Positions 25,235 to 41,604 of a DNA stretch of 47,008 bases are shown piece by piece. Below the pieces are notes generated by a model. The model saw only the letters and a program-made list of their open reading frames with translations, was not told the DNA's origin and searched no databases. A program made the position numbers and the translations under genes. Position 1 is the stretch's first letter. Each line of letters opens with the position of its first letter. This stretch comes from a virus. The stretch lies in UHGV virus genome UHGV-1362026, one strand, 5' to 3'.

Positions 25235-25385
25235 TGTTGTTACGTGGTGCTTTGTGGCATCTATCGCCATGAGCATGATTAGCGCGATTATGCCATCAAG
25301 GGATTTTGCTGGCAGCATATTCGCATTCATGTTCTGGATATCAGGATGGGTTATCGCTTGGGGTCGGATTCGCTATGGCTCGTAA
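25227..25385 (+). CDS. small hydrophobic protein between the terminase subunit genes
   Basis: 52 aa from ATG 25227; two hydrophobic segments; its stop overlaps the TerL start. Confidence 0.4.
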   Translation: MRDVVTWCFVASIAMSMISAIMPSRDFAGSIFAFMFWISGWVIAWGRIRYGS

Positions 25386-26799
25386 ACGACTCTCAGCGCT
25401 GGCAATCGAAAAGCTGGAAGCTCAGATTGATGATGCAATGACAGATGTTGCAGAGTCAGCCATTTTTGGCATCTTCGACATGCAGAAAAACGTTATCAAG
25501 CGCTTAAGGATGACTGCTACTGGCGTTGATGATGTGACCAATGCAACCACTCATGCCGACCACCTGATCCCTGCAAAGCTGGAGCGCCTGCTTTACCCCA
25601 AACGATTTAAGTTTGTCTACGGTGGCCGTGGGTCAGGGAAAACGAGAACGATTATCACTATACTCACTGAGCGCGCAAGGTTTCGACCTGACCGCTTCGC
25701 CTGCTTTCGCGAGATTCAGCAATCCATTGAAGACTCAAGCTACCAGGAGCTTGTTGACGAAATAGCCCGCAAGGGTGAGTCATCAGAGTTTCGCATTATC
25801 AACAATGAGATAACGCACAAAAAGACTAAGGCTAAATTTCGCTTTAAGGGGCTGTATCGCAATCAGACTACGGTTAAGGGTTTTGCTGGCATCACCGTTG
25901 GCTGGGTAGAGGAGGCAGAGAACGTCAGCCAGACAAGCTGGGATATTCTGGTTCCCACTATCCGCGCTGCCAATTCCGAACTGTGGTGCTCATTCAACCC
26001 CAACAAGGAAACAGACCCGACGTGGAAAAACTGGATTGCCCCTTATCAATCGCAGATGGTTGATGGCATATTCGAAAATGATGAAATTCTGATTATCGAA
26101 TGCAACTATTCAGATAACCCGTGGTTCTGGGATACGCCTCTGCCATCAGCCATGGAGCAAATGAAGCGAACTGATTACGACCGTTATCGCTGGATTTGGA
26201 TGGGAGCCTTCAACAAACGCAGCGACGAGCAGGTCTTCGGCGGCAAATGGCGCATTGATAACTTTGAGGTTAAACCTGAATGGCATGGCCCATATTTCGG
26301 GATGGACTTCGGTTTTTCCACGGATCCTACCGCAATGGTTGAGGTTTACATCGAAGAGTTACCAGGCGGGCGGAGAAACATTTATATTAATCGCGAGTAC
26401 GGCAAGGTTGGGCTTGAGATTACCGACACGCCAGCTGCGATGGAGCAATCATTCCCGATGGCTAAACGTGCACGATGGTATGCCGACTGTGCGCGACCTG
26501 AAACCATCAGCCACATCAAGCGTTCTGGATTCGATATTCATCCATGCACAAAATGGCCCGGAAGTGTCGAGGATGGCGTAACGTGGCTGCGAGGCTGTGA
26601 CAGCATCGTCATTCACGAGCGGTGTAAGGAAATGCAGAATGAGGCAGCAATGTACAGTTACAAGGTCGATAAGCTGACCGGAAACGTACTGACTGATATT
26701 GTTGATGCATACAACCATTACTGGGATGCGGTTCGTTACGCACTCAATGACCACATAGTCCAACGCGGCAGCGGGATGCTAATCCGTCGCAGGCGATAA
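25375..26799 (+). CDS. terminase large subunit (PBSX/Terminase_6-type)
   Basis: Walker A VYGGRGSGKTRT; 474 aa from ATG 25375. Confidence 0.9.
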   Translation: MARKRLSALAIEKLEAQIDDAMTDVAESAIFGIFDMQKNVIKRLRMTATGVDDVTNATTHADHLIPAKLERLLYPKRFKFVYGGRGSGKTRTIITILTERARFRPDRFACFREIQQSIEDSSYQELVDEIARKGESSEFRIINNEITHKKTKAKFRFKGLYRNQTTVKGFAGITVGWVEEAENVSQTSWDILVPTIRAANSELWCSFNPNKETDPTWKNWIAPYQSQMVDGIFENDEILIIECNYSDNPWFWDTPLPSAMEQMKRTDYDRYRWIWMGAFNKRSDEQVFGGKWRIDNFEVKPEWHGPYFGMDFGFSTDPTAMVEVYIEELPGGRRNIYINREYGKVGLEITDTPAAMEQSFPMAKRARWYADCARPETISHIKRSGFDIHPCTKWPGSVEDGVTWLRGCDSIVIHERCKEMQNEAAMYSYKVDKLTGNVLTDIVDAYNHYWDAVRYALNDHIVQRGSGMLIRRRR

Positions 26800-26814
26800 A
26801 TCTGCACCACCACA

Positions 26815-26843
26815 CTTGACCAATCTACACCGAGCGCATAGTA
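26815..26843 (+). promoter_or_regulatory. candidate sigma70 promoter TTGACC-17-TAGTAT for the cassette downstream of TerL
   Basis: TTGACC 26815-26820, 17-nt spacer containing AATCTACACC, TAGTAT 26838-26843; a second motif copy ATCTACATCA at 26845-26854. Confidence 0.4.
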
Positions 26844-26874
26844 TATCTACATCAGGATTACCGGAGATATCACT

Positions 26875-27084
26875 ATGCGCAGCTATGCAGGATTCACACA
26901 GGAGGAAAAAGAACAGGTTTATTCGCTGGCGCGGGCTGGCGTGCCTGATGATGTGATTTGCCGTCGGTATGACATCGACAAGGATTTTCTGCTGCGCGTT
27001 ATTGATGATGTTTTCGTTAACCTGCAAGAGAAGCGCGGGTACAAGGGTATCTGCTGCAAGAATGATTTTTTGAGGGGTGAGTGA
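26875..27084 (+). CDS. hypothetical small protein
   Basis: 69-aa ORF; GGAG upstream; first gene of the cassette. Confidence 0.5.
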   Translation: MRSYAGFTQEEKEQVYSLARAGVPDDVICRRYDIDKDFLLRVIDDVFVNLQEKRGYKGICCKNDFLRGE

Positions 27085-27269
27085 TGCTTAAGATGAGCAA
27101 CAGAAGCAAGATTGGCAGGATTGCTTTATTGCCAATCTTCCTGCCTGTGTGGTTGTTATGGGTTTTATTTTCTGGGGCGAGAAATTTATTTGAGTATCTT
27201 GAGTTTTGGCAGAAAAAGGTTATGCGAAAATTCAATGATGTCATTGATAAGTGGTTTCCGCTTTGTTGA
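27084..27269 (+). CDS. small membrane protein
   Basis: 61 aa; hydrophobic IALLPIFLPVWLLWVLFSG; GGGTGAGTGATG junction (RBS, overlapping stop, start). Confidence 0.5.
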   Translation: MLKMSNRSKIGRIALLPIFLPVWLLWVLFSGARNLFEYLEFWQKKVMRKFNDVIDKWFPLC

Positions 27270-27274
27270 GGTGA

Positions 27275-27463
27275 ATGATGAGCGTTTATTTTATTCATGC
27301 TGAAGTTTCTCTGAGAAACGGAATCGTTGTTGAGAATATATCGATGATCATTTCTGCGCATGATGCAAATTCAGCGCATGAACTATTTTGGTTGAGCGAC
27401 ATGGTGACTGGAATCCAGAAAGGGCTTATTGTGGTTATTGATAAATTTGAGAGGGTTGAGTGA
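27275..27463 (+). CDS. hypothetical small protein
   Basis: 62-aa ORF; GAGGTGAATGATG junction. Confidence 0.5.
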   Translation: MMSVYFIHAEVSLRNGIVVENISMIISAHDANSAHELFWLSDMVTGIQKGLIVVIDKFERVE

Positions 27464-27963
27464 TGACCACAATAGCGTGGGACGGGAAAGTAATTGCACA
27501 TGACAGCCAGTCTACGGCGGGCAACCTTGTCATGGCTAATCAGGTTAAATCCTTTATCGTAAATGCCAGTGACGCATTGTTTATTCGTGGAGAGTTAGCA
27601 AAGCTGATTGTTTGCAGTGGAACGGCTGGTGATGAGCGATGGGGTGCGCACTTCATGCGCAATAGCTCAGTTGATGACATTCTTGAATTACCTGAAGAAC
27701 TGACATTTAATTTGTGGGTGTTTACTGAGCGCGGTAACTGCTACGCAATTCATAAATACCAAGGGAATAAGCACCCATCAGTTTACGTGATAATCCCGCC
27801 ATTCGCATCCGGTAGCGGCACAGACATAGCGATGACTGCAATGTATTTGGGGCAGACGGCTGAGGAGGCCATTATCACTGCGTCGGTACTTGATGCTTAC
27901 ACGGATTCAAATGTTAAATGCTATGACTTTGTTCATGGCGCTACTGATAACGAACTTTGCTGA
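27463..27963 (+). CDS. HslV / proteasome beta-subunit-like (Ntn-hydrolase) Thr-peptidase homolog
   Basis: 166 aa from ATG 27463 (TGATG overlap). MTTIAWDGKVIAHDSQSTAGNLVMANQVKSF aligns with HslV [35 protein letters not shown] (Thr after the initiator Met, Asp17-like, Lys33-like). C-terminal FASGSGTDIAMTAMYLGQTAEEAIITASVLDAYTD aligns with [36 protein letters not shown]. Confidence 0.6.
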   Translation: MTTIAWDGKVIAHDSQSTAGNLVMANQVKSFIVNASDALFIRGELAKLIVCSGTAGDERWGAHFMRNSSVDDILELPEELTFNLWVFTERGNCYAIHKYQGNKHPSVYVIIPPFASGSGTDIAMTAMYLGQTAEEAIITASVLDAYTDSNVKCYDFVHGATDNELC

Positions 27964-27971
27964 GGTGAGTG

Positions 27972-28181
27972 ATGATTATTGAAAGAGAAGATGGGTTTTT
28001 AGCAAAAGATAAAACAATTTCATACATGAGTGGCGAGATTGACGTTGAATCCGCTGAAACGCTCGGTACTGAATTCATTTCGCTGTATCAATGTGGAGAG
28101 CAGGTTGCTATGACAAAAACGCAGGCCACCAAACTCATCGCAGTGCTTCAGAAATTGATTGATGGCGGGGAGGTGGAATGA
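27972..28181 (+). CDS. hypothetical small protein
   Basis: 69 aa; GAGGTGAGTGATG junction. Confidence 0.5.
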   Translation: MIIEREDGFLAKDKTISYMSGEIDVESAETLGTEFISLYQCGEQVAMTKTQATKLIAVLQKLIDGGEVE

Positions 28182-28390
28182 TGACCAGAATTGAACTTCA
28201 TGAGCTTGCCGTAATATGCAGACAGAGACTTGAAGATGTATGGATGAGTTGAGTATTTAATACCAAAAGTTACAGCCTTCATGCAAAATGCAGAGGGCTT
28301 GTGGCTGGAGACAGAATGGAGTTGGCGATATTCCACCACGACAACGAAGCGCTCAAAAGGCGCGCGTTTGATGATTGATACCATGCTATA

Positions 28391-28419
28391 ATCCCATCCA
28401 ACGTGATGGGATTTTTTAT
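28391..28419 (+). terminator. rho-independent terminator directly upstream of the portal gene, overlapping an extended -10 element
   Basis: CCCATCcaacgtGATGGGattttttat; TGcTATAAT at 28384-28392 sits immediately upstream. Confidence 0.65.
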
Positions 28420-28427
28420 GGTGACAT

Positions 28428-29840
28428 ATGTCCAAAATTGATGCATTAAACGCCTACATACGCGACCGCGTGGCGAACAATAACCGGGCGCTTCAGCAGC
28501 AACGGCTTTGCGCTGGCGGGAAGAATCTTGACCAGAAGCACGACAGACTCTGGACGGAATGCGGCTACCCGCAGGAAATCACCGCCGAGATGTTCCGCTA
28601 TGCATACGAGCGACATCCAGCTGCCGCCGCTGGCATTAATCGCATTATTAATAAATGCTGGCAGAAATACCCTGAGGTTGTCGAAGATGGCGAGGATGAC
28701 AAGAACTCAACGCCGTGGGAGCTGTCCATCAACGACATGATGAAGCGCGCATACCCATTCATCAAAGAAGCTGACAAGCGCAACGCCATCAACCGCTATT
28801 CCGCTGTTATCCTGCAAATCCGTGATGGCAAACAGTGGAGTGAGCCTGTAGACATCACCAAAACACGCCGCATTAAAGATAAATCCATTGTTCGCTTTAT
28901 TCCAGTATGGGAGGAGCAGCTACGCGTTAGCGCATGGAATAACGACGAAACCAGCGAAGACTACGGCATGCCTGAGATGTACGAATATCAGGAAAGCGCC
29001 GTGGAAGATTTCGATAGTGACGGCAAGCCTGAGCGTTCAGTGCAGATTCATCCTGACCGCATCATAATTCTGGCTGAAGGTAGTTTTGACGGCAGCATGT
29101 TTAGCGGTATCCCGATGCTACGCGCTGGCTACAACAGCCTTATCGATATGGCGAAGGTTTCCGGCAGTTCTGCGGAAGGCTTCCTGAAGAATGCAAGCCG
29201 CCAACTGGCTGTTAACTACACGAAGGATAACGTAACGCCAGCAAGCCTCGCGCAGTCGATGGGTGTCGATATCGAAGAGCTAACCGAAATCATGAATGAG
29301 AACATTGAGGCGCTGAACTCAGGCATTGACGCCGCTATGTTCACAATGGGGGCGGATGCGAAGGTTCTTGCTGTCACGCCATCTGACCCGAAACCTACAT
29401 GGGAAGTGGCTGCCAACCAGTTCGCTGCATCAATGGCGCTTCCGTTCACCGTCATTTTTGGTCAGCAAACTGGACGCCTTGCAAGCGATGAGGACAAAAT
29501 GCAGGAGGCGATGACCGCCAAACAACGTCGTGAAACATGGGTTGATTATGTCATCTCAATGTTCGTTGAACGCATGATTCAGTTCGGCATTGTCGATAAA
29601 GCACCAGCGAATGGTTACAAGGTTAAGTGGGATGATTTACTTGCTCCATCGGAACTGGATAAAGCTGAATTGCTGGCTAAGCTCGCCACTGCGAACAAGT
29701 CGTTCTTTGATGCTGGTCAATCTGCGTTGCTGACCGTCGATGAGGCGCGCGGCATGGTTGGTATGGAACCAATTGAACTTGACGAAAGCTATCGCGAAGA
29801 CACACCACCGGAAGATGAAGATGAAGATACTCCGGTTTAA
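28428..29840 (+). CDS. portal protein (HI1409/DUF1073-type, pairs with the Mu F-like gene)
   Basis: 470 aa between TerL and the F-like morphogenesis gene; acidic C-terminus [10 protein letters not shown]. Confidence 0.75.
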
Positions 29841-38457: not shown

Positions 38458-38651
38458 CTCCGTATATCTTTTGTTCATCATGGGCTGCTATCATTTAATC
38501 AGGAGGTAGCCCATGAACATAATCCCTATCACTTACTTTCTCACGCTATACGCACTCACCAATTCGCCATTGTTTGCACTGGCTACCGCCTCATGGTGCT
38601 ATATCTCCCTGTGTTATAATTCGACCACAAACTAACCGTGGAGAGTTAACC

Positions 38652-40531
<1,880 letters not shown>

Positions 40532-40533
40532 TA

Positions 40534-41604
40534 ATGGAAAAGATTATTTTTACCAAAGACCTGGTAGCCAACTCCGCAGTGGTGGCTGACCAGTGGAAAC
40601 ATCTCACCATCGACCGTAAAGTGTTCTGCAATGCAGAAGCTGAGCTGGCGAAAACCTATGGCGTTAACGCCACCGCACTGGTAACGAAAGATTACTGGCG
40701 CGACGTGGATGACGTCACCACCCGCGTTTTCCGCAACGAAGCTGGTCAGGATATGATGGCTGACCTGATGGGTATCGCGGCAAACATCAACATCGGCAAG
40801 ACTGTGGCAATCAGCCGCATTGCTTCCGATGCTGGCAAGGTCGTCCGCACTCTGTCTGGTCAGGAGCCGGAGGATTTGGATAAAACTCGCTACGATTACA
40901 CTGGCGATGTGATTCCGATCTTCAAAACTGGCTACAGCCGCGAATGGCGCGAACTGCTGGGTATGCAGTCTGAAGGTTTTGACTCGCTGCTGGATGATCA
41001 GGCTAACGTCACCTTCAACCTGCGTTCCGATATGGCGCAGTACCTGCTGACCGGCGACCAGACTCTGAACGTGAACGGCGTTTACACTGGTTACGGTATC
41101 ACCAACCACCCGAACACCATTCAGGTTAACCTGAATGCTTCCGGCGACCTGAATATCGACCTGCAAACCGCAACGCCAGATGAAATCGTGACCTTCTTCA
41201 ACCAGGATTTCCAGGCTATTCTGGATGCGCAGAACGTATTTGAGCAGGTGACTCTGTGGGTTTCCCCGGCAGTGCGTCGTAGCTTCATGCGTCCGTATTC
41301 TGATGCAGCAGGTTTCAAAGGTGGAACTGTTGAACAGTACATCACGCAGTTTGGCAATGGTCGCATCGGCAAGATTGGCACCAACTTCCTGCTGACTGGC
41401 AACCATTTCGTTGGCTACGTTCGCAACGACATGTACATCCGTCCGCGTGTTGCTCAGCCTGTTTCCACCTATGCGGCAGCCCGTGACAACCCGCACGATA
41501 ACTTTAACTTTATGGTGTGGTCAGCTTTCGGTTTGCAAATCCGTAAGGATTTCACTGGTAAGTCCAAAGTGTTCAACGGCTACGGCACGCAAACTCCGCT
41601 GTAA
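40534..41604 (+). CDS. major capsid protein
   Basis: 356 aa, follows the scaffold and decoration genes, strong terminator after it; no internal Met/Cys-rich oddities. Confidence 0.8.
   Translation: MEKIIFTKDLVANSAVVADQWKHLTIDRKVFCNAEAELAKTYGVNATALVTKDYWRDVDDVTTRVFRNEAGQDMMADLMGIAANINIGKTVAISRIASDAGKVVRTLSGQEPEDLDKTRYDYTGDVIPIFKTGYSREWRELLGMQSEGFDSLLDDQANVTFNLRSDMAQYLLTGDQTLNVNGVYTGYGITNHPNTIQVNLNASGDLNIDLQTATPDEIVTFFNQDFQAILDAQNVFEQVTLWVSPAVRRSFMRPYSDAAGFKGGTVEQYITQFGNGRIGKIGTNFLLTGNHFVGYVRNDMYIRPRVAQPVSTYAAARDNPHDNFNFMVWSAFGLQIRKDFTGKSKVFNGYGTQTPL

Follow-up and report, generated by a model that had tools for sequence, protein, structure and literature searches.

The gene at positions 27463-27963 (+ strand) of the UHGV virus genome UHGV-1362026, the 47,008 nt of which are referred to here as the window, encodes a genuine homologue of the N-terminal-threonine peptidases HslV and 20S proteasome beta in which the catalytic residues are kept. 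This homology, put forward in an original prediction made from the sequence alone, is supported by family profiles, by comparison of profiles with hhalign, and by the predicted fold, all of which agree. By its features the product is a putative member of the PPH family of phage and prophage proteins. On balance, it is probably an N-terminal-threonine hydrolase whose accessory role is the proteolysis of one or a few proteins of the host or the phage, and not capsid maturation. The window phage is a Skatevirus/Deseoctovirus-like siphovirus of Enterobacteria and carries a single copy of the gene. Reading of the ORF confirmed that it starts with ATG and encodes 166 amino acids with a Met-Thr-Thr start, the product opening MTTIAWDGKVIAHDSQSTAGNLVMANQVKSF, of which the first residues are MTTIAWDG. 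The ATG is preferred over an alternative GTG start at 27460 because Met-Thr opens 149 of the 164 PPH-family proteins retrieved.

The relationship to the proteasome and HslV peptidases is visible through family profiles only. When the single window protein was scanned against the curated models there was no match in Pfam or NCBIfam, and against the PDB there were marginal beta5 matches alone (E~0.6). In PHROGs, the protein matches phrog_1040, 'peptidase HslV family' (E=2.7e-25), and a profile search of the family returned 6,327 cluster representatives (E<=1e-3), mostly of 140-170 amino acids and matching from residue 1. An alignment was made of 112 family sequences, about 30 % identical among themselves, and is the basis of the conservation counts given below. 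Of its members, 47 match PF00227, 49 match the archaeal proteasome beta model, and 20 match the HslV NCBIfam models (E<=0.01). As a profile, the same alignment matches archaeal proteasome beta (1.2e-8) and Trypanosoma brucei HslV (1.4e-8) in the PDB, as well as bacterial HslVs and eukaryotic beta5 (~1e-7). The family profile reaches the PF00227, HslV, and beta models, which the window protein alone fails to do. Comparison of the family profile with HslV of Escherichia coli MG1655 by hhalign gave a probability of 96.8 % (E=2e-10) over 133 columns, and BLASTP of the window protein against E. coli HslV found a single patch of 21 residues (E=2e-4). Supplied with the 112-sequence alignment, AlphaFold2 returned a model with a pLDDT of 95.3 and a pTM of 0.90, an improvement on an earlier, mediocre model from 18 sequences (pLDDT 70, TM~0.5). 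In addition, 47 viral structure models in BFVD have the same fold (E<=1e-3).

Based on the family hidden Markov model (HMM) and hhalign, Thr2 is equivalent to proteasome Thr1 and is the predicted nucleophile after removal of Met. Likewise, Asp14 is equivalent to proteasome Asp17, Lys29 to Lys33, Gly53 to Gly47, Ser118-Gly119 to Ser129-Gly130, Asp144 to Asp166, and Thr147 to Ser169. A Thr or Ser nucleophile, Asp14, and Gly117 are each present in 112 of the 112 aligned sequences; Lys29, Gly53, and Gly119 are each present in 111, Asp144 in 103, and Ser118 in 101. The ratio of nonsynonymous to synonymous substitution rates (dN/dS) against the two closest homologues is 0.04 and 0.20. Near-invariant catalytic columns together with low dN/dS indicate that the gene is functional and that its active site is under purifying selection. 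It had been anticipated that, were the homology false, profiles of N-terminal nucleophile (Ntn) hydrolases would not match or orthologues would lack the Thr, Asp, and Lys; such matches were found and the alignment keeps these positions, with Thr or Ser at the first and Lys in all but one sequence.

An inactive remnant or a structural protein, acting as a decoy and having no catalysis, is an extremely improbable explanation of this gene. It would fit with the window protein falling below threshold in all of the curated Pfam and NCBIfam models and with no activity having been shown for the family, but the entire catalytic set is kept across the aligned sequences in spite of their divergence, at a dN/dS of 0.04-0.20. 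A decoy would have no use for the nucleophile or the Asp/Lys pair, nor for the oxyanion glycine and second-shell residues.

The residue registers with HslV that were drawn in the original prediction hold for the most part. Asp14 (IAHDSQ ~ AGDGQ) is paired by hhalign with HslV Asp17, Lys29 (QVKSF ~ NVKKV) with HslV Lys33, and Thr2 with HslV Thr1, and the GSG blocks are aligned. The glycine block is conserved as claimed, but its spacing, G53-x-x-G56-D57, is that of proteasome beta (G47-x-x-G50-D51), HslV having three extra residues. The likeness in length to HslV, also cited as support, is coincidental: the median length of the family is 150 amino acids (range 139-176 in the 112 sequences), and in the window protein two insertions offset approximately ten missing residues of the H2 region. 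These insertions, of ~14 and ~8 residues, lengthen the window subfamily to 166 amino acids from the family core. They are at residues 33-46 and 59-66 (approximately nt 27559-27600 and 27637-27660) and distinguish the Skatevirus-type subfamily from the core of ~140-150 amino acids. In the predicted model, the insertion at 33-46 would form an additional hairpin directly after the catalytic Lys29, which could shape substrate access.

The PPH family was described in 2021 as uncharacterised proteins of ~140 residues from Caudovirales and prophages, with no propeptide, without H2, which is a trait of PPH and RPC alone, and without S12/H5 (Fuchs et al., 2021; PMC8665760). In the predicted model of the window protein, a single helix (57-67) is in place of H1 and H2 and is followed by coil (68-81); in the hhalign alignment, the H2 region of HslV shrinks to a short gapped segment, with about ten residues fewer in the window protein. 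The predicted model terminates past the strand at 151-155 with a short tail, and no propeptide is present, as Thr comes immediately after Met. As every described feature that could be checked is present, the window protein is assigned as a likely PPH member, on the features set out in PMC8665760 and apart from the reference sequence of its authors, WP_042125023.1. In common with PPH as described, it has a compact proteasome-like core with equivalents of Thr1, Asp17, Lys33, and Gly47, no H2 or S12/H5, no propeptide, a distribution in tailed phages and in prophages of mostly Proteobacteria, and no conserved partner gene; it differs in being 166 amino acids rather than the ~140 quoted.

Members of the family are carried in 161 phage records and at 250 confirmed loci in IMG/VR, including P22-like prophages. 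A search of bacterial genomes with a DNA pattern for MTTIAWDG found 43 loci, mainly in Proteobacteria, although this samples copies of the exact motif and is not a census. Several homologues already have the RefSeq label 'peptidase HslV family', including that of Salmonella phage SeSz-2 (69 % identical, in the same slot) and those of several Klebsiella phages, Kagunavirus, the Jerseyvirus phages Ent1 and SS3e, SPN3US, and Erwinia jumbo phages, and further records name homologues 'protease' or 'ATP-dependent protease subunit'. The novelty originally attached to a phage HslV homologue was therefore overstated, since the family is already present as PPH (PMC8665760), as PHROG 1040, and under the RefSeq label. 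The window gene adds one member to a family that is known though biochemically uncharacterised and, as a sequence observation, its presence is to be expected, the family being annotated already. No defence-system match was found for the window gene with PADLOC. An mBio 2025 paper on JSS1_004 was set aside as irrelevant, since it concerns host hslVU genes alone.

Comparison with the characterised relatives supports a separate family. The window protein shares with HslV the N-terminal Thr nucleophile and the register of Asp17 and Lys33, which is seen both in hhalign and in the BLASTP patch. In contrast, it is only ~24 % identical to HslV over aligned columns, is below the curated HslV models (TIGR03692 / NF003964), and has no apical helix H2, a shorter N-terminal hairpin, a shorter H3-H4 loop, the beta-type glycine-loop spacing, and no conserved equivalent of Lys28. 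In addition, its gene is phage-borne, dispensable, and without an hslU partner gene, whereas HslV is encoded along with HslU and builds a dodecamer of two hexameric rings on which HslU acts as the activator. The window protein is similarly close to proteasome beta, BPH, and HslV. An orthologous HslV was ruled out by the failure of the curated models, the missing H2, and this equal closeness to beta and BPH. Compared with the 20S proteasome beta subunits (PF00227; archaeal beta, eukaryotic beta5), PPH is 35-50 residues shorter and has no H2, H5, propeptide, or alpha-subunit partner. BPH (PDB 5OVS) differs in having H2, a long acidic pore loop, heptameric double rings, and a chromosomal gene.

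The original prediction considered the position between terminase and portal to be meaningful, however this gap is a variable cassette and in other phages PPH is placed elsewhere. In the window, the accessory cassette (26875-28181, + strand) is made up of phrog_13301, phrog_20630, phrog_26739, PPH, and phrog_13627; that of SeSz-2 contains phrog_13301, PPH, and phrog_13627; and phages Bas80, Bas77, and DS8 have different small genes in the terminase-portal gap. Megablast from DS8, Bas80, and Bas77 covered 20-33 % of 26800-28427 and 0 % of the PPH gene, and the family HMM had no match at E<=0.1 in all six frames of their complete genomes. The window's subtype of PPH (60-80 % identity) is present in only 14 phage records, compared with 186 records in which the terminase-portal region is matched. 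In Shigella phage DS8 the slot has a different cargo, gp43 (L003:2565-2999), which has 144 amino acids and is of unknown function. It was considered as a divergent copy of PPH and was rejected, being of the unrelated family phrog_6596.

Placement was surveyed at 73 IMG/VR loci from 20 lineages, among which no neighbour family is common to more than four lineages. In P22-like prophages the gene order is Rz, x, PPH, TerS, TerL, portal, scaffold. In Jerseyvirus and Kagunavirus, PPH is 5′ of the holin/endolysin lysis cassette; in Jedunavirus it is among the tail genes; in Dewey it is past the lysis genes and a regulator; in SPN3US it is beside tRNA genes; in Erwinia phage Gungnir39 it is between head-tail connector genes; and in some lineages it is beside RNR or DnaB genes. 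In at least six of the 20 lineages it is no more than six genes from the large terminase gene. Based on its absence from sibling phages, the varied cassette, and the varied placement, PPH is a mobile accessory gene that tends, but is not bound, to the boundary between lysis and packaging.

These data also bear on a role as a capsid (prohead) maturation protease cleaving the scaffold or capsid protein, which was one of the functions originally proposed and which has very little chance of being correct. It could be suggested by the location of PPH between terminase and portal in the window phage and in SeSz-2-type phages, by its frequent proximity to the large terminase gene, by its location among connector genes in Gungnir39, and by the lack of a significant match to a known prohead protease family elsewhere in the window. 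However, DS8, Bas80, and Bas77 are viable isolates that have no copy of PPH and yet have near-identical head proteins, being 96.6-98.3 % identical to the window phage in the major capsid protein, 95-99 % in the portal, 95-99 % in the decoration protein, and 97-99.6 % in a 496-amino-acid protein encoded upstream of these capsid genes. This absence effectively refutes the proposal. PPH is also carried by P22-like prophages, although the P22 head is assembled on a scaffold that is recycled, without any protease. The locations upstream of the lysis cassette and beside tRNA genes are also contrary to a role in the capsid, as are the ~11 kb between PPH and the gene for the major capsid protein in the window. 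The prohead proteases known to date use Ser and His and fold either like the herpesvirus protease (the type of HK97 gp4 and T4 gp21) or like ClpP, and are not Ntn hydrolases, unlike PPH with its proteasome-like Ntn fold; their genes usually adjoin those of the scaffold and major capsid protein. The siblings with near-identical capsids, the varied placement, and the P22-like carriers lead to rejection of this role.

Furthermore, there is another candidate for the protease/scaffold slot of the window. It had been stated that no prohead protease is recognizable elsewhere in this genome, and while there is indeed no significant match, a DUF2213-related protein that is sometimes labelled as such holds the slot. 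This protein of 470-496 amino acids (phrog_760) is encoded at 38574-40064 (+ strand; likely start 38652), and its gene is followed directly 3′ by the decoration gene (40064-40531, + strand) and then by the major capsid gene (40534-41604, + strand). It has a weak match to the 'head maturation protease' phrog_3017, and five out of nine divergent homologues weakly match Pfam DUF2213. Its C-terminal ~130 amino acids are coiled-coil-like, and a His, a Ser, and an Asp are invariant in the alignment. Database labels for it vary between hypothetical, coat, portal, and 'prohead (core protein) serine protease'. No solved protease was matched by sequence, including with a nine-sequence profile. It is considered a better candidate than PPH for head maturation, as a putative protease-scaffold fusion.

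For PPH itself, an accessory hydrolase role can be outlined as follows. Since Thr is permissive as a second residue, Met1 would be removed by the host methionine aminopeptidase, after which the free amino group of Thr would act as the base and its hydroxyl as the nucleophile. Asp14 and Lys29 would assist in this, and Gly53 would provide the oxyanion hole. The enzyme is probably a homo-oligomer that cleaves peptide bonds. Most likely, it would aid infection by degrading or processing one or a few particular proteins, either of the host or of the phage; a host defence or stress factor is an example of a possible target class. The suggestion in the original prediction that the gene regulates host proteolysis or host proteins is compatible with this. 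The gene itself would be dispensable, horizontally mobile, and 'moron-like', and would probably be transcribed either with the co-oriented packaging/head operon or from a weak promoter of its own. A possible cassette promoter, TTGACC-17-TAGTAT, is present directly 3′ of the terminase stop (26816-26844, + strand), and a terminator-like hairpin with a 9-bp stem followed by a T-run is directly 5′ of the portal start (28390-28413, + strand). Together they bracket the cassette in the fashion of a moron.

Several points weigh against this account of an accessory protease. Literature searches found no experimental or biochemical work on any PPH, and inference underlies what is said here of its activity as a peptidase, its oligomeric state, and its substrate. 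Not every proteasome-like protein is a hydrolase; connectase, for example, shares the fold and the triad and acts as a ligase (PMC8665760). The loss of H2, an inter-subunit contact helix, may mean that ring assembly is altered or abolished. HslV is nearly inactive without HslU, and activity of PPH standing alone is therefore an assumption. At least six lineages have PPH close to the large terminase gene, which could reflect a connection with packaging or with assembly of the head. In addition, promoter-like and terminator-like sites are no more common in this region than in shuffled sequence, and the two sites above are for this reason weak evidence.

The example of connectase raises the alternative that PPH is a non-proteolytic Ntn enzyme, either a ligase or transpeptidase of the connectase type or an amidase acting on a non-protein substrate. 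Connectase (MJ0548 family) resembles PPH in its proteasome-like fold, its N-terminal Thr, and its lost apical helices, and the absence of H2 from PPH recalls the loss of H1 and H2 that goes with the monomeric state of connectase. However, PPH does not have the helical S3/S4 insertion that connectase has over the active site, and it keeps second-shell residues of the Ser129/Asp166/Ser169 type that are typical of proteasome peptidases. A non-proteolytic enzyme is therefore considered quite unlikely.

Coupling to HslU, which the original prediction had also raised, is likewise thought to be unlikely, though less so. Under this proposal, rings of PPH would dock host HslU, either making a phage-directed ATP-dependent protease with new substrates or titrating HslU from HslV. 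Escherichia, Salmonella, Klebsiella, Erwinia, Pseudomonas, and Vibrio, which are the hosts of the phages found, all possess HslUV. Three Roseomonas-type genomes have a PPH-like gene on the chromosome, separated by ~0.9 kb from the 3′ end of hslU. In ChrisDB and similar jumbo phages of Erwinia, a PPH-like gene occurs in the same genome as a gene for an HslU-like ATPase. However, the Roseomonas adjacency is from a single lineage, and in the jumbo phages, which are one clade, the two genes are ~100 kb apart. There is no HslU-like gene in the window, and no ATPase recurs beside PPH in the 20 viral lineages.

Structural comparison adds to the case against HslU. PPH is without H2, one of the two apical helices, and the work of Sousa et al. 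from 2000 is said to have found that the apical helices of HslV face HslU and move upon activation. The column aligned with HslV Lys28, which we take to be the residue that binds the C-terminal carboxylate of HslU, is not conserved, being Thr, Ser, or Ala. PPH is also no closer to HslV than to proteasome beta and BPH, the latter being thought to act without an unfoldase (PMC8665760), and in Actinobacteria PPH is listed but HslV is not (Table 1 of PMC8665760). Since H2 is missing from the predicted structure, the evidence leans against HslU co-option in its canonical docking form.

A broader version, in which PPH is an alternative proteolytic core for HslU-type unfoldases, using host HslU in the small phages and a phage HslU-like ATPase in some jumbo phages, is drawn from the hslU-adjacent Roseomonas copy and from those Erwinia jumbo phages that also have HslU-like genes. 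This is decidedly unlikely, but were it the case, a hybrid ATP-dependent protease would let a phage destroy chosen host proteins, such as defence and stress-response factors.

At the Roseomonas loci (L128:3005-6340, L116:256-3424, and L129:3373-6528), the PPH-like gene is convergent with an EcsC-family gene, hslU, and hslV. The flanking ybaB-recR and hisB genes are housekeeping and non-prophage, and the arrangement may hint at a link to HslUV. The HslU-like AAA+ ATPase is found in jumbo phages of Erwinia and Salmonella (NC_031126.1, ChrisDB; KX397368.1, Huxley; MW384823.1; MT710307.1). One such protein, RAY gp116 (L147:6353-8062), is labelled 'HslVU family' and localizes to the phage nucleus. 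It is 39-46 % identical to E. coli HslU and was ruled out as HslV-like, being an HslU-like ATPase, and its localization is therefore uninformative with regard to PPH. Neither of its neighbours, gp117 and gp118, is proteasome-like. Two long 'fusion' ORFs were also discarded, as high-GC ORF artefacts containing the host's own hslV.

For an accessory protease acting on selected proteins, the E. coli phage is a convenient point of entry. Regulated protein degradation depends centrally on proteasome-like proteases, and within this family PPH has been described as the first member that is truly viral. The window gene, which is intact and dispensable, is under purifying selection; DS8, Bas80, and Bas77 serve as near-isogenic natural comparators that lack it, and the host genetics are tractable for hslU, hslV, and defence systems. 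Identifying the substrate of PPH and whether it needs HslU would close a real gap.

In its immediate surroundings, PPH is part of a tight, co-oriented series of small genes running from the large terminase subunit (25306-26799, + strand; Pfam Terminase_3 and Terminase_3C), which is the left flank and has no part in PPH function, to the portal protein on the right flank (28428-29840, + strand; phrog_146, Pfam Phage_portal_3). A Shine-Dalgarno-like GAGAGGG (27449-27455, + strand) is 7 nt 5′ of the PPH ATG and, as read from the sequence, may be its ribosome-binding site. Upstream is a 62-amino-acid ORF of unknown function (27275-27463, + strand; phrog_26739), which also precedes the PPH gene in a metagenomic contig (L010). 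Its TGA stop shares one base with the PPH ATG (TGATG), and this overlap suggests translational coupling of the two. Downstream, a small ORF of unknown function (27969-28181, + strand; phrog_13627) starts 5-8 nt past the PPH stop, and the same family follows PPH in SeSz-2. When Bas77 (L140) is compared with 25306-28427 of the window, the large terminase is 61 % identical, whereas the adjoining portal is 95 % and the capsid genes 97-99 % identical. This drop in identity is a mosaic breakpoint, so that the gap between terminase and portal, besides holding the cassette, resembles a recombination junction.

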